The position numbers and the translations under genes are program-made. Positions 7,377-27,136 of a stretch of 43,340 nucleotides of DNA are shown piece by piece (the stretch's first letter is position 1; each line of letters starts with the position of its first letter). The notes under the pieces were generated by a model. It was not told the origin of the DNA and ran no database searches. It saw only the letters and a list, made by a program, of their open reading frames with translations. This stretch comes from a virus (lineage: Duplodnaviria > Caudoviricetes), in the IMG/VR virus record IMGVR_UViG_3300029145_000007, positions 1 through 43,340 of that record, one strand, 5' to 3'.

Positions 7377-7866
7377 CGGGCTCGCCCTCTGCCTTTGTTG
7401 ATACTGTCGAGACGCTCTCGTTTGACCGAGCGAAAGCGTCGTCGAATTCCTTGTTTTGAGCCTGATTCCAGCGATCGAGATTTCCTTGCGTGATTTGCTG
7501 GTAAGCCTCATAGACCATCATGCAACCTTTAGCCGATGGGTATTGGAAAAGCTCCGGATTGAGATCGTCCTCGCTCTTTCCTACCTCGAAAAGGATTTCT
7601 TGGTAATACAATTCGGAATCCCACAAAACCCAATCAGCACAACGGACCGACAAAACGGAGGAATTGAACTCGACGAAAACTCCCTCGATTCCGGCATTCT
7701 CGAGAATCATCAAAGCTTGATGAGCCGCGACGAGTTGATTCTCCTCATTAAAGACCGTGTCGATAGATACCGCCTCTTGGTTGACCCATTCGTTTAGTTT
7801 TTCCGGATCCGCCTCGGTCTTTTCGGCGTCGAATGTGATCATTACCGCGGTTCGTTCTTTCTTCAT
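7369..7866 (-). CDS. Hypothetical protein
   Basis: 165 aa ORF in operon. Confidence 0.7.
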   Translation of the reverse strand: MKKERTAVMITFDAEKTEADPEKLNEWVNQEAVSIDTVFNEENQLVAAHQALMILENAGIEGVFVEFNSSVLSVRCADWVLWDSELYYQEILFEVGKSEDDLNPELFQYPSAKGCMMVYEAYQQITQGNLDRWNQAQNKEFDDAFARSNESVSTVSTKAEGEPVD

Positions 7867-8390: not shown

Positions 8391-9297
8391 GCTCTGCTTT
8401 CATCCTTTCCGCTATCCATCTAACAACCGGGACCGAGACCGCGTTCCCCATTTGGGAATATCGGTGAATGTCGGCAATCCCCGCGGTCAACGTAAACGAC
8501 TTTCCCTCTTTCAAAAACGATCGTTGAGGACCGTTACTCCCCTCTCGATAGAGCGCCTCGCCTTTGATGACAATATCGACCGCGCCTTTAAAGTCACGCT
8601 CGAGCAACGTCGAGGACTTGTCGGTCTCGACATACTTTCCGAATTTCCTCATTGCAAAGACGGCTAAGTTTTTGTCGTCGCATTGTCGCCGCCCTGAGCG
8701 ATTTCCGTTAGCGCTTGCCGTAAGTGTAATACGTTTCCGTTTTCGCTTGCCCTCCGCAGGATTCCGGAACAAGCTTTCGGGCTCAAATAATATTCGGGAG
8801 GGACCTCGGACGTCTCCAAGACATCCAACAATGAACAATCTACGGCGAGTTTGGGGGATTCCGAAATATTGAGAGTCAAACACTCTCCACGAAACGCCAT
8901 ACCCGAGCCTCTCCAAGTCTGAGAGGCATCGTCCGAAATATCGTCCGTTTTCACTTGTGAGCAAATCGCGGACGTTCTCGAGTAGAATCCAACGGGGAGA
9001 ACTTCTTTCGAGAGCTTCGACAATAAATCGCCATCCGTCTCGCTCATCAGCGCTCCCGCGACGATCTCCGGCCATTGAATGAGGTTGACAGGGGAATCCG
9101 GCGACGAGGACGTCGTATCGAAAAGCTCTCCTTGTGGCATACTCGCAACTCTTGTAAAGGATTGATCTTGGAAAATGACGACGGAGGATCAATTGACATT
9201 TGGGATTGTGTTCGGCTTGGAAAATCGCCTCTCCGATTCCCTTAAATCCGAGCTCAAAACCACCCACTCCCGAAAACAATGATCCTAATCGGAGCAT
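8377..9297 (-). CDS. DNA (cytosine-5) methyltransferase, alpha polypeptide (lacks motif IX)
   Basis: LFSGVGG (I), GFPCQPHS (IV), ENV (VI), QTRRRLF (VIII), QMGNAV (X). Confidence 0.93.
   Translation of the reverse strand: MLRLGSLFSGVGGFELGFKGIGEAIFQAEHNPKCQLILRRHFPRSILYKSCEYATRRAFRYDVLVAGFPCQPHSMAGDRRGSADERDGWRFIVEALERSSPRWILLENVRDLLTSENGRYFGRCLSDLERLGYGVSWRVFDSQYFGIPQTRRRLFIVGCLGDVRGPSRILFEPESLFRNPAEGKRKRKRITLTASANGNRSGRRQCDDKNLAVFAMRKFGKYVETDKSSTLLERDFKGAVDIVIKGEALYREGSNGPQRSFLKEGKSFTLTAGIADIHRYSQMGNAVSVPVVRWIAERMKAEHERD
8664..9140 (-). CDS. Nested alternative-frame beta subunit of the C5 methyltransferase (M.EcoHK31I-type)
   Basis: 158 aa ORF in the +1 frame inside the MTase, with SLLDVLE...YYLSPKACSGILRRA. 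Confidence 0.72.
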   Translation of the reverse strand: MPQGELFDTTSSSPDSPVNLIQWPEIVAGALMSETDGDLLSKLSKEVLPVGFYSRTSAICSQVKTDDISDDASQTWRGSGMAFRGECLTLNISESPKLAVDCSLLDVLETSEVPPEYYLSPKACSGILRRASENGNVLHLRQALTEIAQGGDNATTKT

Positions 9298-10229
9298 GAC
9301 AAAGACTCCTTGAGTTTCTCGAGTCGTTGATTCGTCAAATCAACTTGAGATTGACGGACATCGATTCCGCAATATTGGCGACCGTTTCGGATTGCCGCGG
9401 CCGCGGACGTACCCGATCCGATGAATGGATCAAAGACAATTCCGTCCGGAGGACAAAACGACTTGACGAAAAACTCGGCGAGCCACTCGGGGAACGGCGC
9501 CTCGTTCTCGTGGGCGAGATCGTCTCCCATATGACCCTTGCCGACGTTGCCTTTTATGACGTTTGCCGGATTCGCCAGCTTGGGAGGAACGTATCCCTCC
9601 GCGGTTTGAATGTCCCCGTTTTTTGATCCTCGAGTCCCGACTCCCTTTTTCGTTACTACCTCGTGAGACGGTCGACCGGACTTTTGACGAGATCCATCTT
9701 TCCGTCGATTATTGCCTCCCTTTTCGACCGCTCCTCCCCATTGATTCCGGCGAGTCCCATCGGAAAGTCGATGACTCATCGCTCCCCCGGGCGCCCACTT
9801 AGGAGGATGACCGCAAGCCGTATTATCGGACCAAGGGAGTTTTCCTCCGGAGGTCGCGCATATGATCAACTCGTAATCGTTCCGTAACCAATCGGGGCCC
9901 CCGCTGCCAGGAATTCCGACTCGTTGGAATATCGGAGGTTTTCTCAAGTGGATTCCCGCTCTCTTGAGATCAGCGACCAAAAGAAACGGGGTCGCCGAGT
10001 AATTGAATTTGTGAGTCTTTCCCTCGACCACCCAAGCGACAAGACCTTTTGTCACCCGAACGCATTCGACGAACCTCTCGAGCGCCCAATCGACCCAATC
10101 TTGACCCTTGAGAGAAAAGTCGATTCCATAGGTCCGAGCGTCCTCGTATGGAGGCGAACAAAAGCAGAGGTCGAAAGAGTTGTCGGCAAACATTTTCATT
10201 TGTTTGAGACAATCGCCTTTGATGATCAT
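9285..10229 (-). CDS. Amino (N4-C/N6-A) DNA methyltransferase, beta class
   Basis: CSPPY before HEAPFP-like HENEAPFP and DPFIGSGTS. Confidence 0.92.
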   Translation of the reverse strand: MIIKGDCLKQMKMFADNSFDLCFCSPPYEDARTYGIDFSLKGQDWVDWALERFVECVRVTKGLVAWVVEGKTHKFNYSATPFLLVADLKRAGIHLRKPPIFQRVGIPGSGGPDWLRNDYELIICATSGGKLPWSDNTACGHPPKWAPGGAMSHRLSDGTRRNQWGGAVEKGGNNRRKDGSRQKSGRPSHEVVTKKGVGTRGSKNGDIQTAEGYVPPKLANPANVIKGNVGKGHMGDDLAHENEAPFPEWLAEFFVKSFCPPDGIVFDPFIGSGTSAAAAIRNGRQYCGIDVRQSQVDLTNQRLEKLKESLSCSD

Positions 10230-10675: not shown

Positions 10676-12212
10676 AAGCGATAAGCCTTTCCTTTGGTAC
10701 TTCTTTAATCGGGAGAAACCATTCGGTCTCATTGATCGGCATCAACGGGAGGTCTTTCGGAGGATAGCTCCAATACGACTCCCGCGCGATAGCGTGGTAA
10801 AGTTGCGAGAATGTCATTTTCTCACAAGTCGGCTTTTGAGACTTTTTAACCGCGAGGACTCGGTAAGCCCATTTTTTCTCGAGGTTCTCCGTCCGCTTTG
10901 CCATCTTTCGAATTTTGAATTGAGTATTTTTCAACTCCTTGAGAGTCCCGTCGACTTGGAGGACCGCTCTCGTCTTTCCGATCCAAGAGTCGCCGCAATG
11001 CTGACAACGGAGACCCATCCGGACCATTGAGCATTTCGGACATACTATCGGCTGTTTTTCCTTTTGATCGTGGCATCGCTCCGACCGCCTGGCATGTTCG
11101 ATACGGTCGTTTGAGGTAATCTCCCAAAACCGATCGGCATTCAATGACCCGTGTCGCCAATAGTTCCCGCCGTGATCCTGAATGATTACGTGATCCATCG
11201 AGGAGTGATTTCGGAGCAATCGTCCGCCCGCTTGAATGTAAGCCGTCAACGACCCGAAAACCGTCGCGAATATCCCGTGGTAAAGAAAAGGCCAATCGAT
11301 CCCCTCCCTCAAGACGAAACGATTACAAATGACGTTGATCTCGCCCGACTCGACCATTTTCTCGATTTGGTCCCGTCGACTCTGATTGATCGGAAAGATC
11401 TCTCCCTTGATCATGCAATAATCGGAATCGATATGAGCCGCGGTTATTCCTCTGCGCTCGAGGTGGAGAGCGAACCATTTTGACTCCTCGACTCCCGAGG
11501 CGAAAAGAACCGCGGGACGCCTCTCGGGGTTGTATCGGTGATAATGTTCGACGACTCTCCCGAATACTTGCTGAGTGTATTTCATCCGCTTTCCCGCCGA
11601 GATCGCGACCTCGCCTCCCGTGGTATCGACCTTGCCGACAAGTTTCTCGGATGGCTCATCGGGAGCGAAGTATTTCGCGCCGTGCTGGACGTGGGATCCG
11701 CAATCCCTCAACTCGGAATTTTTACCCGCTTGGATAAGCTTGTCGTAAATGTGAGAGATCCCGAGGGGCGTCGCCGTAAATCCAATCAAAATACAATTTG
11801 GATTCATGCGAACGTGTTCTCGGAATATCCGTTGACAAGACTCTCCGCCGTTGTTGTGAGCCTCATCGACGAATATCTCGTCCGACTCGGGGACCTCTCC
11901 TCCTCGTTTGATAGCGGACGCCATCGTTTGCAACATTGCGAGTTGAATATCCTCGTCAACGCTTGGACTATGTCCCGCGGCTATCAATCCGTAATTGATC
12001 TCCTCGTCCCTAAATTTCGCCGCGGTTTGCTCAAAAAGCATTACCCGATTCGTGTAGAGAGTCGTTCTCTTTCGGGTCTCTTGGGTCCTCGTAATCATCA
12101 TTCGAGTTTTGCCGGCGCCCGTTGATGCTTGGACGCAAATTCGGCGATAACCATCTTTGATGGCTTGATCGATTTGATCTAACGCGCTTCGTTGATGCTT
12201 CCAAAGGCTCAA
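10662..12212 (-). CDS. SF2 DEAH-box helicase (RadD/YejH-like) with C-terminal Zn finger
   Basis: STGAGKT, DEAH, TATP, LREGIDWP, QAGGR.LR, CPKC..CQHC. Probable TTG start at 12212 after GGAGG. Confidence 0.9.
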   Translation of the reverse strand: MSLWKHQRSALDQIDQAIKDGYRRICVQASTGAGKTRMMITRTQETRKRTTLYTNRVMLFEQTAAKFRDEEINYGLIAAGHSPSVDEDIQLAMLQTMASAIKRGGEVPESDEIFVDEAHNNGGESCQRIFREHVRMNPNCILIGFTATPLGISHIYDKLIQAGKNSELRDCGSHVQHGAKYFAPDEPSEKLVGKVDTTGGEVAISAGKRMKYTQQVFGRVVEHYHRYNPERRPAVLFASGVEESKWFALHLERRGITAAHIDSDYCMIKGEIFPINQSRRDQIEKMVESGEINVICNRFVLREGIDWPFLYHGIFATVFGSLTAYIQAGGRLLRNHSSMDHVIIQDHGGNYWRHGSLNADRFWEITSNDRIEHARRSERCHDQKEKQPIVCPKCSMVRMGLRCQHCGDSWIGKTRAVLQVDGTLKELKNTQFKIRKMAKRTENLEKKWAYRVLAVKKSQKPTCEKMTFSQLYHAIARESYWSYPPKDLPLMPINETEWFLPIKEVPKERLIAYERD

Positions 12213-12691
12213 AATTGCCTCCAATTCCAAATTAGCAGAACGCAACCGAAAGGAGGTCTCATATTCGGGAGGACCTCTTTTTGATCCGGTTTCAAAAATC
12301 GATATCGGCCAGGCAGAAAGCGACAAGTCAACGGGCTTCCCGCCTTGTCTCGAAACGGCTCGACGAACTCTTGCCACCATCCTTGCTCCGTCCGATTCGC
12401 TGGCAACAAAAGGACGATAATCTCCGCCAACCTCTCCGCCCAAGCTTTCTCCACCCATGGCGCGATTTTGCTATATGGAGGATTGCAATAGACCCTCTCG
12501 TCTTTCCATGACTTGGACAAGCCGTCCGTTTGCTCGGTATAGAATCGATCGAGCTTGGCGTTATGGCTTGCCGCGGCCACGTCGACCGAGAACCGAAACT
12601 CCTCATTGAGTTTATCGAAATCAGCTTGAGGGAGAGCCCGATCGTCCGCGCCCTCTTTTCGGGATGAGTTCAAACCTGAGAGCGTTGGCAT
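12209..12691 (-). CDS. Phage N6-adenine DNA methyltransferase (phage Dam-like family)
   Basis: F..DVAA..HNAK...FYT...DGL...W...VYCNPPYS. Confidence 0.88.
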   Translation of the reverse strand: MPTLSGLNSSRKEGADDRALPQADFDKLNEEFRFSVDVAAASHNAKLDRFYTEQTDGLSKSWKDERVYCNPPYSKIAPWVEKAWAERLAEIIVLLLPANRTEQGWWQEFVEPFRDKAGSPLTCRFLPGRYRFLKPDQKEVLPNMRPPFGCVLLIWNWRQF

Positions 12692-13041
12692 TATCCCACC
12701 TTTACCCCATCTTTCCCAAAGACAAACGAAAGTCCAAAGTCGCAAATTACAAGGTAAGACTCCCCCTCTTTCACGTAGTTTTTTTGTGAAATAAACGGGA
12801 CAAGCTTATCGACGATCTCCTCTCTCATTTTTGCTTTTGGAGTCGGCAACTCGGAATGATGCTCGAGATAATGCTCCTTTGTAACTCCGAATCGAGCCAC
12901 GTCGGGAACCGGATCAAACCAATCGACCATAATCATTTGGACGGGAACGCCACCACCAAAACAAAATGAGCTAGGAAACTGTCTCGGGAGTTGAAAGACC
13001 CGACAAAAGTTATTCCACCCATCGACCAAAAACGTATCCAT
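12691..13041 (-). CDS. Hypothetical protein
   Basis: Stop/start overlaps at both ends. Confidence 0.7.
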   Translation of the reverse strand: MDTFLVDGWNNFCRVFQLPRQFPSSFCFGGGVPVQMIMVDWFDPVPDVARFGVTKEHYLEHHSELPTPKAKMREEIVDKLVPFISQKNYVKEGESYLVICDFGLSFVFGKDGVKVG

Positions 13042-16691: not shown

Positions 16692-16779
16692 TTTGAAAGA
16701 CAGCTAATCCGGCGACGCCGATCAAAATGATCGACGCGCACACACAAACGACGATAGCCTCGAAATCTCGAGATCTCAT
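16666..16779 (-). CDS. Single-TM peptide (37 aa), not in ORF track
   Basis: ATGA overlap with the csrA stop; [37 protein letters not shown]. Confidence 0.6.
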
Positions 16780-17036
16780 TGCGTCGCTTGGGTCTCTCGA
16801 AACTCTTTCATCGAGTCCGAGTTTTGAGCTTTGTTGACAGCCGCGGCTATTTGCTCATCGGAGAGAGGCTCGATTTTCTCGTCCGAATATTGCTCGAGTT
16901 CACCGCGGACGATCCGGATATTGTCGGGAGCATTTATCCCAATCTTGACCGTCCCTCCCTTCAATTGGAGGATTTGGATTTCGATTCCGCCATCGATAAC
17001 GATCGATTGATTTTTTTTACGAGATAAAACCAACAT
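16776..17036 (-). CDS. csrA: Carbon storage regulator CsrA/RsmA
   Basis: [14 protein letters not shown]...[14 protein letters not shown]; ATG at 17036. Confidence 0.93.
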
Positions 17037-17062
17037 AGAAAAATTCCCTTTCGAAAAGTCGT

Positions 17063-17371
17063 TTAGTCTTGGGGAGCAAACTCCCCGCAATTACAAAGAC
17101 GCTCGATCCGTCGGCAATTCTTACATAGACCCGTTTCGTTGAAATTGAGCTTTTTCGCCCTCTCGAGCGACTCCCTATGTCCGGAGAACTCGGACGACTT
17201 GAGACACTCGGAGCAAATCAAATCCTTTGTTTCGGGGTCCTCAATGAGCGGAAAAAGGGTCGTTGTGCATTTCGAACATTGTTCGCCAGGAGGACAAGAA
17301 ATCGGAAACTCGTCGGCGAGTCTCTCTCCCGCGGCAATCTCATTCAAAATTCGATCGTAATGATCCGCCAT
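17063..17371 (-). CDS. Cys-rich Zn-binding hypothetical protein
   Basis: CSKC, CSEC, CKNC, CNC; first gene after the early promoter. Confidence 0.7.
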
Positions 17372-17455: not shown

Positions 17456-17490
17456 AAATAAAAAAGCCCCCGAATGGCGGCTCGGGGACT
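17456..17490 (-). terminator. Intrinsic terminator
   Basis: AGTCCCCGAG-ccgcca-TTCGGGGGCT followed by a T-run on the minus strand. Confidence 0.8.
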
Positions 17491-17529
17491 TTTCGACTTT
17501 TCTCGTGGTCGCTATCGAACGACCGGTTC

Positions 17530-17747: not shown

Positions 17748-17786
17748 TGTCAACCAAAGTTTACAGTCCGAGAAGTCTCCGAGCAA
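17748..17786 (-). promoter_or_regulatory. Promoter TTGCTC-17-TAAACT with operator TGTCAA-CCAAAG-TTTACA (17748-17765)
   Basis: Directly upstream of the HTH gene. Confidence 0.55.
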
Positions 17787-18426
17787 TAGTTCTCAACCTC
17801 GCGACTCTGTAAACCGTTCCGTTTGAGTCGACCGATCGGAGAGGAGAGCCACGAAACCCCCTCGCCGCGCTGACTGATACCGTTTCGGGAGGAGAGTAAG
17901 TCGTCGATCCGTTGGAATAAACTCTCCCGTTTGATCTGTAAACGTTGCCACTCGGGGACATTCCGAGAGGTACGGTCGAGCTTGAGGTCGACGAAATGAC
18001 CGTTTCCGACATCGAGGATAATTGATTCTCTCCCTCCGTAATCGTTACGGTCTCATAAATAGGATTATTGAGGTCGTCGTAACAGTTACCGTAACCGTCG
18101 CAAATTTGCTGATAACCAACGATTCTCCGGACTGTTTTCGATTTTGGCTTTTCGTCGTCCGTTGACCCAAGCGTAATCGATTTGAGATTCATCTTGTCGA
18201 GACGTTCCTCGATCGCGTCAAGCCGCTTTAGTATCTCTTTCAATTGAGTATCGTCCGCCTTTTCAATGTCGAAATCTTGGAACCCATAACGGGCGAAATG
18301 ATCGATTACGGGATCGACCTTTTTTTCCTCGAGATCTATCGACGGCATACTCAAAACCAATTCATCCGACCCGAGAGAAACACTCGAGACCAATCCAACA
18401 ATGAGAAATAATATTACGCGTTTCAT
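17761..18426 (-). CDS. Secreted hypothetical protein
   Basis: Signal peptide MKRVILFLIVGLVSSVSLG, coiled coil, CDGYGNC, Ser/Thr-rich linker and basic tail. Confidence 0.7.
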   Translation of the reverse strand: MKRVILFLIVGLVSSVSLGSDELVLSMPSIDLEEKKVDPVIDHFARYGFQDFDIEKADDTQLKEILKRLDAIEERLDKMNLKSITLGSTDDEKPKSKTVRRIVGYQQICDGYGNCYDDLNNPIYETVTITEGENQLSSMSETVISSTSSSTVPLGMSPSGNVYRSNGRVYSNGSTTYSPPETVSVSAARGFRGSPLRSVDSNGTVYRVARLRTIARRLLGL

Positions 18427-18440
18427 TTCTGCCTTTCGCG

Positions 18441-19292
18441 CTATGGGTAAATGATATGTTTCGAGAACTTCGACTCGACCTTGGGTCGGTTGAGCTTCAT
18501 TCCCGTTGCGATCCAAAACTTATGGTATCCGATCGTTTGCTTGAAATGCTCCTCGTGTAGAGTTGCGATTCCGTTCTTATGGATATTGACTCCCCACGAA
18601 CCCGGTTGATCAACCCCGGGAATATCGTTGAGGAGGATCGGTCGGTCGACTAATACGGCGTGATTCCCTCGTCCGTTGTCGACTCCACAAAATCCGCGAT
18701 ACTTTCCGGAGGTTTGAATCCGCTCGTAATTGCGGCCGGCGTGGATTGCCACTCCTCCAAAGTATCCCATTAAAAGAGCGATCCAAAGCTCCTTGAACGT
18801 CGTTACCTCCTCCCATTCGAATCCGCAAAAGAATGACGCGTTCTCTCGGTCCGCGTTCGTAAAATCTCTCTTGCGAATCTTGGCATAATGCCGCGGAAGA
18901 TATGGAGGGAGTCCAAGTCGTTGACCGAGGTCGAGAGATTCCGATAAAAGCGACCCGTGATCTTTGCCGTCGACGACTTGAGCGTAACCGAACTCCGGAG
19001 ACAGCTTGATATAGAATCCAAAGTTTTGACGGATTACTCGCTCCGAGATCCCTCCTTGCATGTAAAAATTACAAGAGCCTTTTCCGTCCTGATCCTTTTT
19101 GAAAGTATCGATCGGGAACCAATCGGACCTTTTCCATTGCCGATATTTTTCTTTGTAATACTCAATCGCTTGAGCCCAAGTCCAATTGGGGAGAACCGAG
19201 GAAAGCTTTTTCGTCCGAGTAAGCTTGACATTCTCGGCAACCGTTCCGACGACGCGCCCAAATGATCCATATTGTTCTGTTTGCTCTGTCAT
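18441..19292 (-). CDS. Papain-like (C1 family) cysteine peptidase
   Basis: DQDGKGSC (oxyanion Q, catalytic C), LSPEF.Y, GNHAV (H), GSWG. Confidence 0.8.
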   Translation of the reverse strand: MTEQTEQYGSFGRVVGTVAENVKLTRTKKLSSVLPNWTWAQAIEYYKEKYRQWKRSDWFPIDTFKKDQDGKGSCNFYMQGGISERVIRQNFGFYIKLSPEFGYAQVVDGKDHGSLLSESLDLGQRLGLPPYLPRHYAKIRKRDFTNADRENASFFCGFEWEEVTTFKELWIALLMGYFGGVAIHAGRNYERIQTSGKYRGFCGVDNGRGNHAVLVDRPILLNDIPGVDQPGSWGVNIHKNGIATLHEEHFKQTIGYHKFWIATGMKLNRPKVESKFSKHIIYP

Positions 19293-20047
19293 TTGACTAA
19301 CTCCAAGAGATCCTTTTCGCTTTTGGGGAGAGGAAACGCCTTGACGAATTTCCCTTTCTCGTCAAATAGCAGAATCGCGGGGAGTCCTGCCTCTCGAGCC
19401 GCGGCCACGTACTCCGACGCCTCGGGATTGTCGACGTCATACCAAGACGCCTTTTTTACAATGTCTTTCGTCGTTGACAACTTTCGCCAGGCGTCCGACA
19501 TCCTGATATTTCGAGCCGCCTCGTCGAGCTTGTCCCTTTGCTCAATGACGACAACCGCTCCGATATTTGCGTTTGGCTTGGGATCGGGTTTCGGCTCGGT
19601 CTTTTCTTCGTCGTCGTCCTCATCGGGAGGAGGGTCTTTTTTCTTTGCTGCCTTCAAGACCGAGCGGATCCGCCGAGGAGGGCTCTTGGGGAAGTCTTTC
19701 GGGATAATGGTCAACGTGACTCCGACGTCCGATTCCGGCATCGCGAGGAATAGCTTTCCATTCTCCTCTTGGTAATGCTCAAACTCCGCCGGATACCTGA
19801 TATCCCATAACGGATAGCCGTCTTTGACTCCCTCCGGCTCGAGCATGACTAGCGCCGCGTGTGGGATTGTCTGATCATTCTCAAGAGGATAATTCGAAAC
19901 TTTGGCATTTATCCCGACGCCGTCCTCAACGACTTTAATCGACCTCGGAGATACCTTGGGGACGACCACCTCTCGAGGCTCGGGAATTGCAAACCCAAGA
20001 CCGACGACGAGGCAAAAAATAATTACGATTGTCTTTTTCATTTTCAC
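19289..20047 (-). CDS. Exported/membrane-anchored protein with Pro/acidic linker and thioredoxin-like C-terminus
   Basis: N-terminal hydrophobic segment; GLPAILLFDEKGK...PLPKS; coupled to the peptidase gene. Confidence 0.6.
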   Translation of the reverse strand: MKMKKTIVIIFCLVVGLGFAIPEPREVVVPKVSPRSIKVVEDGVGINAKVSNYPLENDQTIPHAALVMLEPEGVKDGYPLWDIRYPAEFEHYQEENGKLFLAMPESDVGVTLTIIPKDFPKSPPRRIRSVLKAAKKKDPPPDEDDDEEKTEPKPDPKPNANIGAVVVIEQRDKLDEAARNIRMSDAWRKLSTTKDIVKKASWYDVDNPEASEYVAAAREAGLPAILLFDEKGKFVKAFPLPKSEKDLLELVK

Positions 20048-20050
20048 TCC

Positions 20051-20087
20051 AAAAAAAACGGTCCCGCCAAATCTTTCGAGGGGACCG
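20051..20087 (-). terminator. Intrinsic terminator immediately upstream of the 20047 start
   Basis: CGGTCCC/GGGACCG stem followed by T8. Confidence 0.7.
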
Positions 20088-20115
20088 CGGGCTCATTGCC
20101 TCTCAAATTTGCTTT

Positions 20116-20625
20116 CTATGCCGCCAAGACGAAAGAGAGATCGAGTCCGATCATTCGCTCGACAATCGCCGCGAATGCCAAAGCCGTTGCCACTCCCGCG
20201 ACGCTCGCAATCGTCATGATAATTTTGATCAATTGACCAATGAATTCGATAAGCTTTTCGGCGCCTCCATTTTCGAACCACTCAAACCACCATTTGAGGA
20301 ATTGTCCGTCGCCAAACTCTCCGACCCGTCCCGAGGTCAAAAGGTCTTGTTTTGATTCGTTGACAACATAATCGGCGAACGCTCGGAATCTGCTTTCGTT
20401 TCTCAATATTGCTCGAGTCCGCCTTGCGAGCTTTCTCTCTTTTTGAGCTCTCCAAGTCCTCCAACGACCGACCTCGGAGATCTTTGTCTCGCATCTTTCG
20501 AGAATTTCCTCGAGTTGATCGTTTATCGCCGTGTCGCACTCTCCAAAGTCGCAACCATCGCAAGCCAAACCGAGACGGGAGAGATCATCCTCCGTCCCTT
20601 TCAATGCTTTGAGTTCCATAATCAA
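20116..20625 (-). CDS. Hypothetical protein with C-terminal hydrophobic segment
   Basis: Coupled to the lipase gene; IIMTIASVAGVATALAFAAIV. Confidence 0.7.
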   Translation of the reverse strand: MIMELKALKGTEDDLSRLGLACDGCDFGECDTAINDQLEEILERCETKISEVGRWRTWRAQKERKLARRTRAILRNESRFRAFADYVVNESKQDLLTSGRVGEFGDGQFLKWWFEWFENGGAEKLIEFIGQLIKIIMTIASVAGVATALAFAAIVERMIGLDLSFVLAA

Positions 20626-21278
20626 TTTCTTTCCGGTACTTTCAAAAGCTCGATATATCGGGGCATCAAATGAGATCGAATGACTCCGCGCGTATATCGA
20701 AAAAGTCCAAAAGGTAAAACATTTCGGAAGCTGTAAAAATTACCAACCCGAAAGACGGTCCCGACGTGTCGCCAGGCGAACAAAGGCCAAAAAGGACAAC
20801 GGGGAACAATGTCTCCCCACGCGTTGAACTGCCAAACGTTCCAATCGGTTTGGATTGCTTCTCGAGAAAAACGAGGGGCCCCAAAAGTTACAACCTGATC
20901 GATCTCGTATCCATCCGCCGCCAATTCGATAGCCGCCGTTTGAGCGAGAGTCCCGCCTCTCGAATGTCCTCCGAGACGAACCGGTTTAGACTTTGAAAGC
21001 CCTTGCTCCTTGAGCCCCCGAACGACATTGACCGGATCGAATCCTCGAGCTATTTCAAACCCGTGAAACTTCCAAACTCGGACATCGAGGTTTTTCAGCC
21101 AATCAAGGAAACCGCTCGACGTTGTCGGCTTGTCGCTACCTCGGACCGTTACCTCTTGAACGCCGTCGACCTCGTCGAGATAAAACTCGGCATTTCCCTT
21201 TTTATGGAATGGTCGTTTGTCCGTGTAAACGTCGCGACTATTGAGCGCGATTCTATGGAGAATCTTTTCGTCGATCAT
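20622..21278 (-). CDS. Class-3 lipase (alpha/beta hydrolase)
   Basis: VTVRGS, GHSRGG nucleophile elbow, TFGAPR, DIVPRCP, H in SHLMPRY. Confidence 0.9.
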   Translation of the reverse strand: MIDEKILHRIALNSRDVYTDKRPFHKKGNAEFYLDEVDGVQEVTVRGSDKPTTSSGFLDWLKNLDVRVWKFHGFEIARGFDPVNVVRGLKEQGLSKSKPVRLGGHSRGGTLAQTAAIELAADGYEIDQVVTFGAPRFSREAIQTDWNVWQFNAWGDIVPRCPFWPLFAWRHVGTVFRVGNFYSFRNVLPFGLFRYTRGVIRSHLMPRYIELLKVPERN

Positions 21279-21397
21279 TGACAGAGGGGAGCAAAAGAAA
21301 AATAAAAAACCGTTTCCGCGTCGCGTTGCTCCGATATTTGACTGAGAAAATCTTTTTCGACGGAAACGACTCTCAAATAATACCCCTCGTTTGTGAT

Positions 21398-21415
21398 TGT
21401 ATAAAGAACCTTACA
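21398..21415. promoter_or_regulatory. Operator-like box TGTATA-AAGAAC-CTTACA
   Basis: Intergenic, upstream of the lipase; fits the 18-bp consensus. Confidence 0.5.
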
Positions 21416-21442
21416 ACCACATATGGACGAATGAGAAAAAAA

Positions 21443-21670
21443 TTACGGAGTTCCCGAGCCTCCGCCGCCTGAACTTTGGAGACAAGCCTTGTAAGCCGCG
21501 ACCGCCGCCGCTACCTCTCCGGCTTTCGAATTCATCGCCGAGACTTTGGCCTCGTAATCGACCGGATCGAAAGGGTCTGCCTCGCAAGCATCCGACGCCA
21601 AAGTTACCGCCGCCGCGTACTCCGCTTTTTTGGTCCCTATCAATGCTTTTTCAGCTGAACAATCAGACAT
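21443..21670 (-). CDS. Small Ala-rich protein with three Cys and a Gly tail
   Basis: Likely start MSDCSAEK at 21670. Confidence 0.65.
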   Translation of the reverse strand: MSDCSAEKALIGTKKAEYAAAVTLASDACEADPFDPVDYEAKVSAMNSKAGEVAAAVAAYKACLQSSGGGGSGTP

Positions 21671-21672
21671 TT

Positions 21673-21906
21673 TTACAAGCTCCTTTTCCCGTATTCGTGC
21701 TCGAGTTGTTTCGCATAAACCCGAGTTGACGGAGCGGTCTCGATACTCGCCTCGACCCAATACCCCGAATCCTCATCCCTTACGATAGCCTCTTTCGGCT
21801 CGGTTTCTACCGTATCTCTTGGGGGGTCGATTCCGATTAGATCAGCCAGGAGGAAACCGAAAAGAACCAAACCAACTCCTCGAATGATTTCCGTCGCGAG
21901 TTTCAT
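21673..21906 (-). CDS. Small protein with N-terminal TM segment
   Basis: Likely start MKLATEII at 21906 (ATGA overlap). Confidence 0.65.
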   Translation of the reverse strand: MKLATEIIRGVGLVLFGFLLADLIGIDPPRDTVETEPKEAIVRDEDSGYWVEASIETAPSTRVYAKQLEHEYGKRSL

Positions 21907-22061
21907 CCGTTCACCATTTGCAAGATCTTGAGAACGACAATAATCCCGAACGAAACCCAAAAGTAAAAGCGTTGTTTCTCTTGGCATCGCTCCAACTCTC
22001 GGACCCGTCGCGCCAATCTACGGACTCTCTTTTTGAGAGCGTTTTCCTCCGACTCGTCCAT
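21903..22061 (-). CDS. Coiled-coil plus C-terminal TM peptide (52 aa), holin-like candidate; not in ORF track
   Basis: MDESEENALKKRVRRLARRVRELERCQEKQRFYFWVSFGIIVVLKILQMVNG. Confidence 0.7.
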   Translation of the reverse strand: MDESEENALKKRVRRLARRVRELERCQEKQRFYFWVSFGIIVVLKILQMVNG

Positions 22062-22205
22062 TTTACAAACTGCCCAATCAAGAGGGGTCGCTCCCTCGGT
22101 TTCCCTATTTTCGAGGAACTCCGGACCTTTTGACCGTGTAAACCTCGAGGTTTTTGGGTAGATTGTCGGAGTCCCACACGTCCAAAGGGATTATAAATCG
22201 AAATG

Positions 22206-22231
22206 ACCGAGTCGAGAGGCTCGGTTTTTTT
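22206..22231 (+). terminator. Plus-strand intrinsic terminator
   Basis: ACCGAGTC-GAGA-GGCTCGGT (GNRA loop, G-U pair valid only on +) followed by a T-run. Confidence 0.65.
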
Positions 22232-22676
22232 ATTTCAACCGAAATAATAAGACGTTTTCGTTTGCCGGATTCCGCCAACCCTTGACCCACGAATCGCGGA
22301 AACCCTTCAAAGTCCGGACCTCCGTTTCCTTTTCCTTGATTTGGTGAAACGTCGCGCCCTGATCTTGTCCGAAAATGTTCGCCTCGTGGTAATCCTTGAC
22401 GGGATCGGTCATCAAAACCGTTGCTTTCTTCCCGACAACGTCTCCGAATACCTTTTCCGCCTCCCAATTGACGTAAGTAATCTCCCCGCGGTCGTTCGCA
22501 AATACGACGGGACGAGAGCTCATATCGGCAATCATTCGATAATGATCGGGATTCGCGCCAATAACCGTACTTTTCATTTGAACGGCGACGATGATTCCAG
22601 CAATGACCGCGATCGCAACCACGATTTGAACAAACAAAACAAGCCGCTTACTTCTTGGCGCGTTCTTTTTAGGCAT
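22230..22676 (-). CDS. Membrane-anchored PAS-domain protein (148 aa)
   Basis: Basic N-terminus, one TM, then YRMIADMSSRPVVFANDRGEITYVNWEAEKVFG..VGK....LM. Start at 22676 overlaps the upstream stop. Confidence 0.8.
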   Translation of the reverse strand: MPKKNAPRSKRLVLFVQIVVAIAVIAGIIVAVQMKSTVIGANPDHYRMIADMSSRPVVFANDRGEITYVNWEAEKVFGDVVGKKATVLMTDPVKDYHEANIFGQDQGATFHQIKEKETEVRTLKGFRDSWVKGWRNPANENVLLFRLK

Positions 22677-23073
22677 CGATCGAATCATCCTCCTCGAGGT
22701 CCTCGTCGTCGTCCTCGAGCTTTGTCTTTTTCTTAATCTTTTTGACCACGAGATCGACAGTCTCAAGACCACCGAGAGAAAGTCCCGCGATAATTCCCAA
22801 GATAACGACTCTCGGGATATAGGTTTGCTCGGCGAATATGAGAGCAATTGCGACTCCCATCATTGCCGTATTCAAAGCGTATTTGATTATGAGGAGGAGT
22901 CGGTCGTCCTCGTGATTTTGAATCTCTCGAGTTGCCGCGGCAATCCCCCCAATCAGTCCGATGATTGCTCCACAAATGACCGTATCTCGGACCGAGATAT
23001 CGACATTTTGAGAGGCAAAAAGGAGGGTAACGATTCCGACGTTCCACGCCGCAATAAGTAGATTTTCGGTCAT
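22669..23073 (-). CDS. Multi-TM membrane protein with basic-then-acidic tail, holin candidate
   Basis: 3-4 hydrophobic segments; tail KKIKKKTKLEDDDEDLEEDD; lysis-position synteny. Confidence 0.6.
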   Translation of the reverse strand: MTENLLIAAWNVGIVTLLFASQNVDISVRDTVICGAIIGLIGGIAAATREIQNHEDDRLLLIIKYALNTAMMGVAIALIFAEQTYIPRVVILGIIAGLSLGGLETVDLVVKKIKKKTKLEDDDEDLEEDDSIDA

Positions 23074-23085
23074 TCCGTTTCCGGT

Positions 23086-23688
23086 TTAGAGTGCGCTTTT
23101 GATTGCTTCCCGCTCGTATTTCGAAATGACAGTATATCCCGCCGCCGTAAGCTTGGCGCCGGTCGATATCGGGAACCATTTCGCCAGCGATCCGATAATC
23201 TTTTGACCGTTCGCCTCGAGGGGAGTAAGGTTTCGACTTGCCGCAAATTCCGACCAAGTCATTTGGACCATTGTCTCCGATGCCTCGTCGAATTTCTGGC
23301 TCAATGGTCCGAGGAGAGTCGGCGTCGCGGCCAGGAATTCGGCGTCGGAAAGATTGACGTAAAACGGCATTCCCGAAATATCAATACAATGTCGTCCGTC
23401 GGCGTGAACCGGTTTCGTTATCAGAAAACAAAATCCGAGACTAAACCCTCCGGCGCCATCGCTGCAAAGGGTTTGGATTACCCTTTCCTTTGTTTGGATC
23501 GGGATCTCCCTTTCGAAAAGCTCCGAGTCGGTCGCATTGAGCGAGCCGTAAGTCAAAAGCCGTCGGAACATTTTTGAGACCAACGCGAACTCTCCCGCGC
23601 TCCAAACCGAAAGCTCGGAGCGAAAGCTCTGATCGTTGTCCGTCAACGCATCCGCGGCGCCCTGATCTCCCAATATTTTCAACATCAT
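23086..23688 (-). CDS. Hypothetical protein (tail-associated?)
   Basis: Likely start MMLKIL at 23688. Confidence 0.65.
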   Translation of the reverse strand: MMLKILGDQGAADALTDNDQSFRSELSVWSAGEFALVSKMFRRLLTYGSLNATDSELFEREIPIQTKERVIQTLCSDGAGGFSLGFCFLITKPVHADGRHCIDISGMPFYVNLSDAEFLAATPTLLGPLSQKFDEASETMVQMTWSEFAASRNLTPLEANGQKIIGSLAKWFPISTGAKLTAAGYTVISKYEREAIKSAL

Positions 23689-23689
23689 T

Positions 23690-26600
23690 TTAAACACCAA
23701 TTCCAAAAATAATGATTTCCTTTTCGTTCTGGACATCCTGAACGATTGAAAGAGGGAACTCCGTAGAGGACCCAAACGAGAGATTCGAGGACAAGTCCAA
23801 AAAGTCTCTAGTTATATTCGCGTTATCGTCGCCATGATTAACGCTCGAGTTAAGATCGAGCGAGTCAAAGGTCATTGGCGAATCGAAAACAACTGCCCCG
23901 GAAACCGTCATTTTCAAATTGCGAATCTTTGCATTCATATAGTAACCGCCATTTCTCGAGAAAATCGCGATATCTCCCGAGTTAGTTCCGGGCGCCGATA
24001 AAGTGGCTGTCGTCTCCGTCCCATCTATGAAAAACGAAATATCGTTCCCGTCTCTCTTGACTTTTAAATGATGTTCCGAACCCTCGACAAGGCTCGACGA
24101 CGGCGACGAATGTTGATTAACTCCCTCGTTTGTCGACCCAAATCTCATCCGAAAACGGTCCTGCGATGTATCCGCCAACAACCCCCAAAGCGTCGCCGAT
24201 CCCCATAGATAGTTTGCCGACGCGCCCGATGGGATAATAACTCTAGCCTCCCACTCCCAATCCGTCCCGTTTAAAAGATTGATTCCGTAATCGATCTCCG
24301 CGTCCGTACCATTCCCGACGACTCGTTGACCGGCGTATTTCGCGATTTGGCAATTTGAAACCGGAGATCGATTGATCGTTTCTCCGCCTGGCAAAAAGAG
24401 AGGATTTCCTCCTTTTACAGTTATTTGACCCCCAAAAGCATCCGCCGAGCCATCATTTAACGCCGGAATGATATCTCCGTTTGAGGGAGTTCCGTTCCAA
24501 GTTGCCGAGACTCCGGAGTCCGTTTTGACCTCGTCTCCCGTTTCGCAAAGTCGGAGCCTCTCGGTCGACGGCGTGGAATCGAAAGCCGCATGGTCGGCGA
24601 GGGTCGAATCCCAAGCCTCGAGATCCCAAAACTCTCCCTTTGCGAGACGGATTGATCCCCAATCCGCCCCCGTTGCCGGCGCCATGATATAGGATCCGTT
24701 TGTCAAGTTTGCTTGAGCCGCGTTCGTTGCTGTTTGCTCAACTCCATTTGTAAAGAGTCGCAAAGTCTTTGAATCAAAGTCCCAAATTATCGCGACCTCA
24801 AAATCCTTGTCATACGCAAAATTAGTTGATGCTTTTCCGACCGCTGAGGGACCGTAATCGCATTGCAAGCGTATTTGACCCGACTCAATATTGACCGAAA
24901 AACGAACGTCTCCTCCCGAGTGAGTATGAGAAAACAAACACGCGTTATTGGGCGCCGGCGTTCGAACGTTGCATCTAAAACGCATCGAAAAGTTTTTCTC
25001 GGGGTCTATGATTGCTGTAATAACGCTTGGAGTTGCGAGCGTGTCGTCCGTTCCGTCTGCCTCTTTGCCCTTTCGAGTAAACCCTTTAACGGCGTTATAA
25101 AAGAATTGATTTTGCGTCGACTCGGTCGGTCCATTCTGCCAAGTCAAATGCTTTCCGCTTCCCGAGACGTCATATCCCGACGCGTCCGGCCAATATCGAA
25201 CAATGTTCGCCGTCTCGAGTTGAGAGGTTGAGATCTCGGAATCGTAAATCCGGACGTTCCAAATCTTCCCGTCGACATATCGATCGTAAGAAGTATTCCC
25301 CGAGATATGAGCGCCAACCTCGACCGGCGTCGTTGTCGCGTGCATGGCGACATAGGTCCCGGTTTCGGACTTGGTCGCGGCCGGCGTCGTCCAACCGTCT
25401 CCGTCGTCAACGTAAAGACTCAATCCGCTTTCCGCTCCGCCTCCGTCGTAAGTCGCCAAAACCTTGTAATTCTTTGAGGTCGAGAGAGGAGAATCGGTTT
25501 CGATTTTGATCGAGTTTGAATTCGTATCGTCGTAAAGAATAAAAACCAAGTCTCCGGAGTCATTGAGAAGGAGAGACCATTCGCAATTTCCGGAATCGAC
25601 GTCCGTTATCTTTGAAACAAGACCGCCTTTTCCCGCGGCGAATGCGTCGACGTTGAACTCGCAATAAACCGCGAAAGGATCGTCCGAGCTTCCGTCTCCA
25701 AATTGGACGTTTGCGCTCGAGTCCGAGGTCCCATACTGATTGACTCCGTCTCCCTCGATACAAGACGCGCCCTCAAGTTTCCAATTCCAAGGAGCTATCC
25801 CGTTGAATGTCAACGAATTTCCTTGAGAGTCTCCTCCGTCGATCCTTGCCGATACCCGGACTTGCTCGTCGATAATCTCGACATTGTCGACCGTAAAGAC
25901 AATATCGGACGCATAGCAAAAGATCTCAATATCGCTCGTCGCGCCATTAACCTCGACCTCGACGTCAATCGACCCCGTCCCGGTTAACCCTGTTTTTGCT
26001 CTCGTTCCGTAACGGTTTCGGACCTCAAATTCGCCCGACTCGAGTCCTCCGGAAACGATCTCAATATCGGCTTTTACTCTGATCTTGTTTGACGGCTTCG
26101 TAATCGCTTGATAAAGACCGACATTCGCCGCGGTTGAATCATACGATATTTTCGCCTTTCCGTTTTCATGAGAGAGAGTTCCGGCGACTCCCGTCCAACT
26201 TGAAACGTCCGAATCGAATGATCCATTTGTCTCGAGCCTTTTGTAAGAAAATCCGGCTCGATTGTAGTCGTATTGACTGATTCGGATATCCGCGGATTCA
26301 TAAAGCGTCGGCGAGTTGCCTCCGGTCACGTTTGGCGAGTTTGCCGTCAATCCCCAAGCTTGATCCGTATCGTATCTCCAACCGAGATCGTCCTCGGTCA
26401 ACTTGTGAATATTGCGATAAACGTCTCGGATCTCTGCCTTTGAAAGAGACGATCCGAAATAAAGCGATTCGATAACCTCTCCGTCGAGATAGTCCGAGGA
26501 GCTTCCGTCGGTCTTTCCAACTGAGATCGTATTTGAGTTTGACGGCTCGTAATCCTGCCCCGTTGCCGAATGAGTCACTCGTCCATTGACAATAACGTCG

Positions 26601-27136
26601 ATATCCCACGTTGACCCGTTTTTTGTGAAACGGCAACCGATTTGAGTTGATTTGGTCGTCGATATATCAGAAAGAGAACCCGCAAGAGTATTGACCGCCC
26701 CTCCGGTATTGTACCATTGAACCCGATAAGAGGTCCCATTGCGCATAATTCGCCAACCGTTTTGGGACCCGATGCTCATCGAGTTGATATATTTATCCGA
26801 TCCCGTCGTCGCCGAGTTTGTCCGAACCAAATCAAGGAAAACCGTAAAGTTTTCGTCTCCCTTGTGAACTCCTCCCGTTGGAGTGTGGATAAACGATTGA
26901 TTTACTCCGTCAAGAGACGCGCCTCTCCCTCCGACTATTTCTCGAGCGTCGCCGAGTCCCTCCAATTCGTCGTAAATCGTACCGTCGAGGGACGGAACTT
27001 TCTTGACGAAATAAGCCCCTATCGCCTTTTGTAGCTTATGGGCGTTGAGGATAGTTTTCGCATTCGCAACCGCCTTTTTTAAAGGCGACATCGAACCGAC
27101 ACAAGTCAAACGTTTATTTCGAAAGAATAGGCTCAT
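23690..27136 (-). CDS. Large LamG/concanavalin-A-like repeat tail/adhesin protein
   Basis: Repeated units such as LDGVNQ...YLDGEV and GDGVNQY...VLATYDGG...LYVD...YVDGKIWNVRIY. Confidence 0.75.
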   Translation of the reverse strand: MSLFFRNKRLTCVGSMSPLKKAVANAKTILNAHKLQKAIGAYFVKKVPSLDGTIYDELEGLGDAREIVGGRGASLDGVNQSFIHTPTGGVHKGDENFTVFLDLVRTNSATTGSDKYINSMSIGSQNGWRIMRNGTSYRVQWYNTGGAVNTLAGSLSDISTTKSTQIGCRFTKNGSTWDIDVIVNGRVTHSATGQDYEPSNSNTISVGKTDGSSSDYLDGEVIESLYFGSSLSKAEIRDVYRNIHKLTEDDLGWRYDTDQAWGLTANSPNVTGGNSPTLYESADIRISQYDYNRAGFSYKRLETNGSFDSDVSSWTGVAGTLSHENGKAKISYDSTAANVGLYQAITKPSNKIRVKADIEIVSGGLESGEFEVRNRYGTRAKTGLTGTGSIDVEVEVNGATSDIEIFCYASDIVFTVDNVEIIDEQVRVSARIDGGDSQGNSLTFNGIAPWNWKLEGASCIEGDGVNQYGTSDSSANVQFGDGSSDDPFAVYCEFNVDAFAAGKGGLVSKITDVDSGNCEWSLLLNDSGDLVFILYDDTNSNSIKIETDSPLSTSKNYKVLATYDGGGAESGLSLYVDDGDGWTTPAATKSETGTYVAMHATTTPVEVGAHISGNTSYDRYVDGKIWNVRIYDSEISTSQLETANIVRYWPDASGYDVSGSGKHLTWQNGPTESTQNQFFYNAVKGFTRKGKEADGTDDTLATPSVITAIIDPEKNFSMRFRCNVRTPAPNNACLFSHTHSGGDVRFSVNIESGQIRLQCDYGPSAVGKASTNFAYDKDFEVAIIWDFDSKTLRLFTNGVEQTATNAAQANLTNGSYIMAPATGADWGSIRLAKGEFWDLEAWDSTLADHAAFDSTPSTERLRLCETGDEVKTDSGVSATWNGTPSNGDIIPALNDGSADAFGGQITVKGGNPLFLPGGETINRSPVSNCQIAKYAGQRVVGNGTDAEIDYGINLLNGTDWEWEARVIIPSGASANYLWGSATLWGLLADTSQDRFRMRFGSTNEGVNQHSSPSSSLVEGSEHHLKVKRDGNDISFFIDGTETTATLSAPGTNSGDIAIFSRNGGYYMNAKIRNLKMTVSGAVVFDSPMTFDSLDLNSSVNHGDDNANITRDFLDLSSNLSFGSSTEFPLSIVQDVQNEKEIIIFGIGV

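Follow-up and report, generated by a model that had tools for sequence, protein, structure and literature searches.

To our knowledge, textbook endolysins all come from a short list of muralytic families. The lambda-type holin-endolysin-spanin cassette closes the late gene run or adjoins the terminase genes; its first gene encodes a small protein with several transmembrane segments and a charged tail, and a soluble enzyme without a signal peptide follows, with exported and membrane proteins around it. The same features are seen in a block of ten genes (g1 to g10) at positions 17761 to 23073 of the IMG/VR virus record IMGVR_UViG_3300029145_000007, a DNA of 43,340 bases that we analysed as a whole and refer to as the window. 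In contrast to the lambda-type cassette, the enzyme of this block is a C1 peptidase (g9) and not a lysozyme, transglycosylase, amidase or M15, M23, NlpC-P60 or CHAP enzyme; the block also holds a separate exported thioredoxin-like partner (g8), a lipase (g6) and a PAS protein (g2), and it has no recognisable pair of i-spanin and o-spanin, g10 being without a lipobox Cys. On balance, and with moderate confidence, we read the block as a lysis module in which g9, predicted to dock on the exported g8, replaces a conventional endolysin; g8 and g9 would then most likely be the two components of a lysin whose catalytic class is new.

A papain fold in a lysin has precedents. The available part of a review (PMC10318531) treats the papain-fold endolysin domains CHAP, NlpC/P60 and Amidase_5 of clan CA, and the accessible text of a preprint assigns D29 LysA N4 as a C40 domain (bioRxiv 10.1101/2025.01.22.634383). 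These domains share their clan and the Cys-His pair with g9, and phages use them to cleave amide bonds or stem peptides in the wall; they are other families, however, since g9 matches neither PF00877 nor Pfam CHAP/NlpC and has the two-lobed C1 architecture. A two-part architecture also has a counterpart in PlyC, a two-component endolysin with a catalytic subunit (PlyCA) and a binding subunit (PlyCB). Both systems would have a catalytic and a separate docking or wall-binding subunit encoded side by side, and for g8 and g9 binding of the two is supported by a complex model and by natural fusions; they differ in that the protein families are unrelated, g8 has its own signal peptide while g9 has none, and wall binding by g8 is putative. 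LysB enzymes are cutinase-like. The lipase g6 resembles them as a lipid esterase in a lysis cassette that would help to breach the outer lipid layer once the wall is cut, but it is a class-3 lipase (PF01764) without a peptidoglycan-binding domain, belongs to a phage of a non-mycobacterial host and has its lysis role suggested by position. LysB is given as a lipolytic lysis enzyme of mycobacteriophages in the available text of PMC13578437. Xylellain-type C1A peptidases were horizontally acquired by Myoviridae and Siphoviridae according to the accessible part of PMC10380794, which gives no function for them. Xylellain (3OIS) itself is the best solved profile match of g9 and resembles it in length (~290 aa), in its N-terminal extension, which is short and takes the place of a long propeptide, and in its fold, with Gln, Cys and His kept in g9; it is, however, a cellular enzyme without a lysis role, whereas g9 is encoded by a phage as part of a lysis-type block, has g8 as its predicted partner and is without the triad Asn. 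In the literature we found no paper that pairs Peptidase_C1 with endolysins, nor a lysis role for phage C1A peptidases.

The family of g9 was defined with a profile of g9 and three close relatives that was searched against 1.84 billion proteins. This search gave 360 representatives at E <= 1e-3, mostly viral; among the best 150 of these, PF00112 was matched at E <= 1e-3 by 57, with 54 at or over its cut-off. An alignment of 100 members, with g9 as its first row, was used for the profile search of the PDB and for modelling with AlphaFold2 (AF2). The 100-sequence profile matched 159 PDB chains at E <= 0.01, and the 60 matches listed were all C1 peptidases, led by xylellain (3ois_A, 1.2e-18) and cathepsin K (1.5e-14), while g9 alone gave no match to PDB sequences with phmmer. 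The catalytic residues are almost invariant in the alignment (Q68 in 99/100, C74 and H211 each in 100/100). The oxyanion-hole Gln sits six residues before the catalytic Cys, which is the papain order, and the family consensus reads NQxxxGSCN...GNHAV...NSWG.

The AF2 model of g9 from the 100-sequence alignment had a mean predicted local distance difference test score (pLDDT) of 90.3 and a predicted template modelling score (pTM) of 0.89; an earlier model from 4 sequences was poor (pLDDT 44.6) and was not used. Foldseek aligned the model to 283 PDB chains at E <= 0.001, and the 50 top rows listed were C1A peptidases and their proenzymes, including procathepsins, cathepsins, plant C1 proteases and xylellain, with target-normalised template modelling (TM) scores of about 0.7. 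Because the longest of the Foldseek alignments were those to proenzymes and xylellain, the first ~60 residues of g9 may be a pro-like extension, as hinted by the model. The best match in BFVD was a 'Peptidase C1A' of an uncultured phage (E 3.3e-20, TM scores 0.79/0.84), and the structural neighbours in the same database include a phage protein named 'Peptidoglycan binding-like'. In addition, the neighbours of g9 in the ESM Atlas were 90-100% viral, and one neighbour cluster was 83% PG_binding_1. Taken together, these results show that g9 is a C1 peptidase by profile and fold with Gln, Cys and His kept; hydrolysis of peptide bonds is its predicted activity.

Within the block, g9 is the best-conserved gene: in the related record L002 (G001) its counterpart is 73% identical, compared to 64% for the large terminase subunit (TerL) and 65% for the portal protein. 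Furthermore, 8 of the 150 best family representatives carry inteins, all inserted exactly before the catalytic Cys. The strong conservation and the inteins at this residue argue for a core function. The intein carriers (P0039, P0062, P0081, P0092, P0100, P0108, P0127 and P0148) are relatives outside the window; their inteins are of the Hint/Intein_splicing type, some with LAGLIDADG, and are bounded by an N-extein ending in ...GS and a C-extein beginning with CNG, the intein itself reading CFPAGTL...VHN. Cultured phage genomes gave no tblastn match to g9 at E <= 0.1, and of two other family members one had a match in an unannotated 595-kb metagenomic phage and the other had none; isolated phages therefore essentially lack this family. 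Likewise, a scan with the 4-sequence alignment found no g9 relatives in genome contigs and, in metagenome contigs, found only the contig of L002. Searches for related loci that started from the single proteins P0006 and P0155 gave none; those with P0166 and with an alignment of the fusion proteins did yield loci.

The earlier note on this DNA had seen no muramidase, amidase, CHAP, M15 or M23 motif in the window, and our searches agree: none was detected at E <= 0.01 with Pfam (91 open reading frames, ORFs), PHROGs (61 ORFs), NCBIfam (30 ORFs) or six-frame searches with hidden Markov models (HMMs). No muralytic Pfam family was matched by g9 or by any of the 91 ORFs. The six-frame searches of the record covered 10 families, of which GH19 is uninformative because its control was silent. 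The same kind of search was applied to 30 phage records with a g9-type gene, 7 of them at least 90% complete and 5 with terminal repeats. None of the 30 contained PF00959 (Phage_lysozyme), PF01510 (Amidase_2), PF01464 (SLT), PF13539 (Peptidase_M15_4), PF01520 (Amidase_3), PF00877 (NlpC/P60) or PF08291 (Peptidase_M15_3), and PF01551 (M23) gave only 2 weak sub-cut-off matches, inside proteins of ~1450 aa; the positive control PF00112 was found in 18/30. PG_binding_1 was present in 5 of the 30 records, and in every case it lay C-terminally within the C1-like ORF. A word-index search with the family alignment returned 40 proteins, none with PG_binding_1 among its precomputed domains. The earlier note had called the cassette one without an endolysin. 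We would revise this, since the C1 peptidase is most likely the endolysin equivalent: it occupies lysis-type slots in unrelated phages, no canonical hydrolase of the informative families searched accompanies it over the cut-off in the 30 records, and some of its distant relatives are fused to PG_binding_1.

The position of the block is compatible with that of a lysis cassette, as had been proposed. All genes of the window lie on the minus strand and, from the right end, run from a fatty-acid-hydroxylase-like gene through the large terminase, portal, protease-capsid fusion, head-tail genes, tape measure, tail proteins and a 1148-aa LamG-rich protein to the block, in which all ten ORFs described earlier as co-oriented after the tail genes are present. 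A helix-turn-helix (HTH) gene, a strong terminator-like hairpin, CsrA, recombination and replication genes and three DNA methyltransferases follow. The block stands at the end of the late (structural) gene run, after the tail genes, and the hairpin beyond the HTH gene is, judged by its pattern, likely to be the end of the late transcript. The first gene, g1, has the topology of a small holin-like membrane protein, with a charged C-terminal tail that reads KKIKKKTKLEDDDEDLEEDDSIDA. It gave weak matches to PHROG holins (phrog_1299 at 2.2e-4, phrog_175 at 5.4e-4 and phrog_6384 at 7.2e-4), as did its orthologue in L002 (phrog_6384 at 1.5e-4 and phrog_785 at 9.5e-4), while no Pfam holin family was matched by g1.

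A similar set of genes recurs in other phages. In L003 (G002), g7-like, g8, g9 and g10-like genes lie between replication/methylase genes and the terminase genes TerS and TerL. The record of L022 (G404), from an unrelated structural lineage and scored 100% complete, has directly before TerS two transmembrane proteins, a transmembrane-anchored g8-like protein with an acidic linker, the peptidase and a g10-like protein with a signal peptide. A recurrent order was seen at 26 further loci, where a 150-190-aa protein with a C-terminal transmembrane segment is followed by a 200-260-aa protein with a signal peptide or anchor, the peptidase and a small transmembrane or secreted protein; in L025, L036, L037, L029 and L035 the second gene before the peptidase encodes a protein of about the size of g7 with a C-terminal transmembrane segment, and in L003 and L022 proteins built like g10 follow the peptidase. 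The module precedes TerL in L032 and L033. In L047, also scored 100% complete, the peptidase lies between tail-fibre genes and a helicase, flanked by ORFs of 62 aa and 59 aa in both of which a transmembrane segment was called. The PAS gene g2 and the small genes g3 to g5 are shared with L002 only.

The gene directly before the peptidase, g8, had been described as an exported thioredoxin-like protein coupled to it. The ATG of g9 overlaps the stop of g8 by 4 nt, and the N-terminus of g8 is signal-like. As to thioredoxins, g8 matched no Pfam, PHROG or NCBIfam family (best PDB sequence at E 0.81), it has no CxxC, and its last ~90 residues only weakly resemble thioredoxin folds, with all ESM Atlas rows under the bar for naming and the best thioredoxin row at a TM score of 0.66 normalised by a 98-aa target. 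We therefore consider g8 thioredoxin-like in fold at most, and reject it as a redox-active thioredoxin because it lacks CxxC. When 3 sequences of the thioredoxin-like domain were made into an HMM, it gave no significant match among the family proteins or at two Planctomycetota loci.

Two lines of evidence point to a partnership of g8 and g9. Seven family members are natural fusions in which a signal peptide or transmembrane anchor, an N-domain, a Pro-rich linker, a ~90-residue g8-like domain and the C1 domain follow one another; as these fusions are exported or membrane-anchored in some phages, the action of the enzyme is placed in the envelope. In addition, a complex model of g9 with residues 160-252 of g8 scored 0.78, compared to 0.01 for the best of 3 controls. 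In a rough count made with own alignments, the 0.78 mark was reached by 116/157 solved complexes and by 2/215 mismatched pairs. The model runs agreed in at least 84% of contacts, and the pLDDT of the partner was at least 86. The modelled contacts of g9 (32-35, 49-58, 88-93, 159, 175-176 and 263-270) exclude Cys74 and His211 and form an interface of the N-terminal extension and the back of the L-domain; on the g8 side the contacts include residues 182-183 and 200-203. The model supports binding of g8 to g9 and, since the contacts lie away from Cys74 and His211, g8 looks like a docking, perhaps activating, subunit; for the same reason a role of g8 as an inhibitor that blocks the active site was rejected. 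By coordinates, the overlap at window positions 19289-19292 (-) reads ATGA, with g9 in the -1 frame relative to g8. Judged by this frame geometry, an occasional -1 frameshift fusion of g8 to g9 is conceivable, because natural fusions of the two exist elsewhere.

On this basis the following course of lysis may be proposed. The putative holin g1, with four transmembrane segments and a charged tail, would accumulate in the inner membrane, while g8 and g10 would be exported beforehand via their signal peptides and g9 and the lipase g6, which have none, would wait in the cytoplasm. Once the holin opens the membrane, g9 and g6 would reach the envelope, where g9 would dock on the thioredoxin-like domain of g8 via its N-terminal extension and the back of its L-domain. 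Docked g9 would then cut peptide bonds of the wall, either in stem peptides and cross-links of peptidoglycan or in wall-bound proteins. The lipase, in this lineage only, would act on lipids of the outer membrane or on lipid anchors in a manner comparable to mycobacteriophage LysB, and g2 (PAS), g3, g4, g5 and g7 may tune the timing or the membrane steps. A bolder version of this scheme, which we put forward tentatively and regard as doubtful in its full extent, is that the g8-g9 pair is an instance of a widespread, undescribed binary lysin: a zymogen-like peptidase would be harmless while in the cytoplasm and become active only in the envelope, where an exported subunit of thioredoxin fold would hold the pro-like extension of the enzyme and anchor it to the wall, and a lipase and a PAS-sensor membrane protein for lysis timing would have been added in this planctomycete-associated lineage. 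Such a zymogen-like enzyme would be an endolysin class with a built-in spatial safety catch. If the lysis reading is true, it would bring a new catalytic class and a two-part architecture to lysis across hundreds of uncultured phage lineages, would explain why many environmental phage genomes appear endolysin-free, and would be a source of new enzymes for use against bacteria whose envelopes are unusual. The lipase and PAS protein of this phage would further represent a natural system for outer-layer disruption and lysis timing without spanins.

Several observations weigh against g9 as the replacement of an endolysin. Searched alone, g9 did not match PF00112. The third triad residue is not kept in g9 and its three closest relatives, which have PGSWG with Gly231 at the position that we take to be papain Asn175; over the family this position is N in 59, G in 33 and another residue in 8 of 100 members, with the Cys-His dyad intact. 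The C-terminal domain of g8 aligned with the ~90-residue domain of the fusions only weakly by hhalign (E 9.8e-4, probability 21.9%), though collinearly. Moreover, g9 itself has no wall-binding domain, and the relatives with PG_binding_1 are distant (E 6.7e-7, 3.1e-5, 1.2e-4, 0.11 and 2.3 against the family profile at Z=1e6), two of the five not being significant. Among 49 genes that lie around the peptidase in 11 other loci, there was no match to a lysis-category PHROG, so that holin roles there are suggested by topology alone. The result that nothing passed the curated cut-off in the 30 records holds for eight informative families; CHAP, GH25, GH108, Amidase_5 and glucosaminidase were not searched.

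The bond to be cut is a further point on this side. Peptidoglycan contains D-amino acids and iso-peptide bonds, and we know of no C1A peptidase shown to cleave it; all C1A enzymes known to us to be characterised are proteases, and the substrate of g9 may thus be protein. This would suit an alternative in which the block is a lysis module but g9 cuts envelope proteins, such as those of a protein-rich wall, an S-layer or the ties between outer membrane and wall, and together with the lipase opens an atypical planctomycete-like envelope, in line with the earlier note. The closest solved structures to g9 (cathepsins, plant proteases and xylellain) and the co-location of the lipase with the module in this lineage are consistent with it, as are hints of a host among the Planctomycetota: among genomes, the terminase (TerL) profile matched a single contig, which is 33% identical and comes from a metagenome-assembled genome of this phylum, and a 263-aa g9-type ORF with a g7-like neighbour occurs in a Planctomycetota genome. 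Of the planctomycete-like host proposed in the earlier note, a weak hint of this kind is what stands, as the assignment consists of a single 33% match. C1 matches were found in 69 of 401 Planctomycetota genomes, but most of them were to large cellular proteins, and the highest score was 102.6 bits, compared to 150-340 bits for g9 family members in the protein database. In addition, distant relatives fused to PG_binding_1 point to peptidoglycan as the place where the enzyme acts, and the many unrelated phage lineages that carry the module are unlikely all to have atypical hosts. We consider this alternative as a whole unlikely.

In a second alternative, a conventional endolysin is encoded in a missing part of the genome, with the peptidase, its partner and the lipase as accessory lysis factors, for example as spanin substitutes that free the outer membrane. 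The record is classed 'linear', its CheckV completeness is 67% and an ORF is cut at its left end. No PHROG spanin was matched in the 61 window ORFs; without a recognisable spanin pair some outer-membrane step is still needed. However, a second assembly with the same g9 protein (44,665 bases) is only 1.3 kb longer than the window, none of the 30 module records passed the cut-off in the eight informative hydrolase families, and the related records G001 and G002 (52% and 51% complete) are likewise without a wall hydrolase by Pfam on the ORFs scanned. A hidden conventional endolysin appears quite improbable to us.

Finally, the genes may not serve lysis but be cargo or virion-associated envelope enzymes for entry or for host manipulation, such as phage exclusion or membrane remodelling. 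In L025 (6558-8923) and L036 (4719-6984), a module of g7-like, g8-like, peptidase and small transmembrane genes lies between the protease-capsid and neck genes, which is not a lysis slot. A homologue of the lipase in G002 (L008, 6033-6707) lies among head/tail genes, far from the g8-g9 pair of that phage, and we know of nothing in the PAS domain that speaks for lysis, a PAS domain having no known lysis role. In contrast, most contexts of the module adjoin terminase genes or follow tail genes and lie beside small membrane proteins, g1 has its holin-like matches, these genomes offer no other candidate lysin among the families searched, and the conservation of g9 with inteins at the catalytic Cys speaks for a core function. 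A role outside lysis appears very improbable to us.

Table 1. Features of the ten-gene block and its downstream border, in window positions, with amino acid identity to the counterpart in L002
Feature	Position	Strand	Description	Basis	Identity to L002
g1	22669..23073	-	134 aa, holin-like membrane protein	four hydrophobic segments, acidic/basic C-terminal tail; weak PHROG holin matches	55%
g2	22230..22847	-	one transmembrane segment and PAS domain	ORF from TTG at 22847; transmembrane segment at ORF residues 65-98	39%
g3	21903..22061	-	52 aa, charged helical N-terminus and C-terminal transmembrane segment	sequence, hydropathy; 58-aa analogue in L002	
g4	21673..21987	-	small protein with N-terminal transmembrane segment	sequence, hydropathy	33%
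g5	21443..21760	-	small soluble alanine-rich protein with cysteines		61%
g6	20622..21278	-	218 aa, class-3 lipase without signal peptide, no transmembrane segment	PF01764 1.2e-7; phrog_21992 esterase/lipase 4.5e-17	56%
g7	20116..20625	-	169 aa, Cys-rich cytoplasmic N-terminus, C-terminal transmembrane segments (tail-anchored)	sequence, hydropathy	36%
g8	19289..20047	-	252 aa, signal-like at the N-terminus; an acidic/Pro-rich linker joins its N-terminal domain to a thioredoxin-like C-terminal domain that lacks CxxC; predicted docking partner of g9		43%
g9	18441..19292	-	283 aa, divergent papain-family (C1) cysteine peptidase without signal peptide, candidate lysin	profile and fold	73%
g10	17761..18516	-	secreted: coiled-coil stretch, Ser/Thr-rich region, cationic C-terminal helix	sequence, hydropathy	31%
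Terminator-like hairpin	17461..17494	-	14 pairs and a T-run, 3' of the HTH gene that follows the block	pattern match only	

For nine of the ten genes, tblastn found homologues in L002 that are collinear with them and likewise follow the tail genes (Table 1); the block genes are therefore conserved and not chance ORFs. The tenth, g3, is too short for a tblastn match, and L002 has a coiled-coil/transmembrane ORF at the same place; the synteny across related phages that had been called for as a check is thus present as nine collinear genes and one positional analogue. L002 also has an 85-aa ORF on the opposite strand between the counterparts of g5 and the lipase (7465-7722, -), and at 8475-9234 (+) an extra 76-aa transmembrane ORF after the lipase; in place of a single g7 counterpart there seem to be two ORFs, one of 119 aa and a transmembrane one of 62 aa. 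The description of the individual genes given earlier agrees with their hydropathy, sequence and family matches. The PAS domain of g2 passed NCBIfam TIGR00229 narrowly (23.6 bits vs a cut-off of 22.9, 4.3e-5) and stayed under the cut-off of 27 with Pfam PAS_9 (18.8 bits, E 0.002); gating of lysis by a sensor, which the earlier note had considered, is a guess from the presence of this domain. The real start of g2 is probably the ATG at 22688 or 22676. Similarly, g4 probably starts at Met28 (21906), judged by coordinates that overlap it with the stop of g3, g5 at Met31 (21670) and g10 at Met31 (18426), after which a signal-like segment follows. No Pfam or PHROG family was matched by g3, and none in Pfam, PHROGs or NCBIfam by g7; for g5 no credible family was found, the only match being Acyl-CoA_dh_2 at 0.007, below its cut-off. 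A role of g10 as an o-spanin was rejected, because its signal region MKRVILFLIVGLVSSVSLGSDE has no lipobox Cys.

The lipase g6 scored 32.2 bits against PF01764 and passed the curated cut-off of 22. Its GHSRGG and GDIVPR, presumably the motifs of the catalytic Ser and Asp, align with GHSLGG and NDIVPR of 1dt3_A ('LIPASE', E 4.4e-6), among solved fungal lipases. The Ser and Asp motifs of the S-D-H triad that had been called intact are thus seen against solved structures, while the alignment ends before the His; a motif SHLM(P/A)xY kept in g6, L002 and L008 is the likely His site. A lipase was found in three related records (G000, G001 and G002; 56% identity to that of L002 and 31% to that of G002/L008, E 2e-28), but in none of 10 other records with the peptidase module, which indicates a lineage-specific addition. 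Its absence from these records and its place among head/tail genes in one relative argue against the ten genes being one fixed system, as had been thought. Among cultured phages only two cyanophage records matched the lipase, at E about 1e-4. By analogy with LysB and from its position, g6 probably has a role in lysis.

Other genes of the window were noted in passing. The late operon is closely followed by a CsrA homologue (16776-17090, -; PF02599 at 2.2e-20); two CsrA-like matches were obtained in L002. A 151-aa gene of the fatty-acid-hydroxylase family (42163-42618, -; PF04116 at 3.1e-13) immediately precedes the large terminase gene, an unusual cargo at that place. The capsid gene (35524-37758, -) encodes a 744-aa fusion of protease and major capsid protein (phrog_4523, PF25209), and the same type of fusion was seen in L036. 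The LamG-rich 1148-aa protein and the 229-aa protein after it occupy 23086-27136 (-); because their G002 homologues lie between portal and capsid genes (L003 17846-20779; L008 35-1238), the two may not be plain tail fibres. In the early region, the methyltransferases are Dam-like (12209-12745), N6/N4 (9285-10229) and C5 (8377-9297), all on the minus strand, and a HerA-like ATPase is encoded at 4159-5724.

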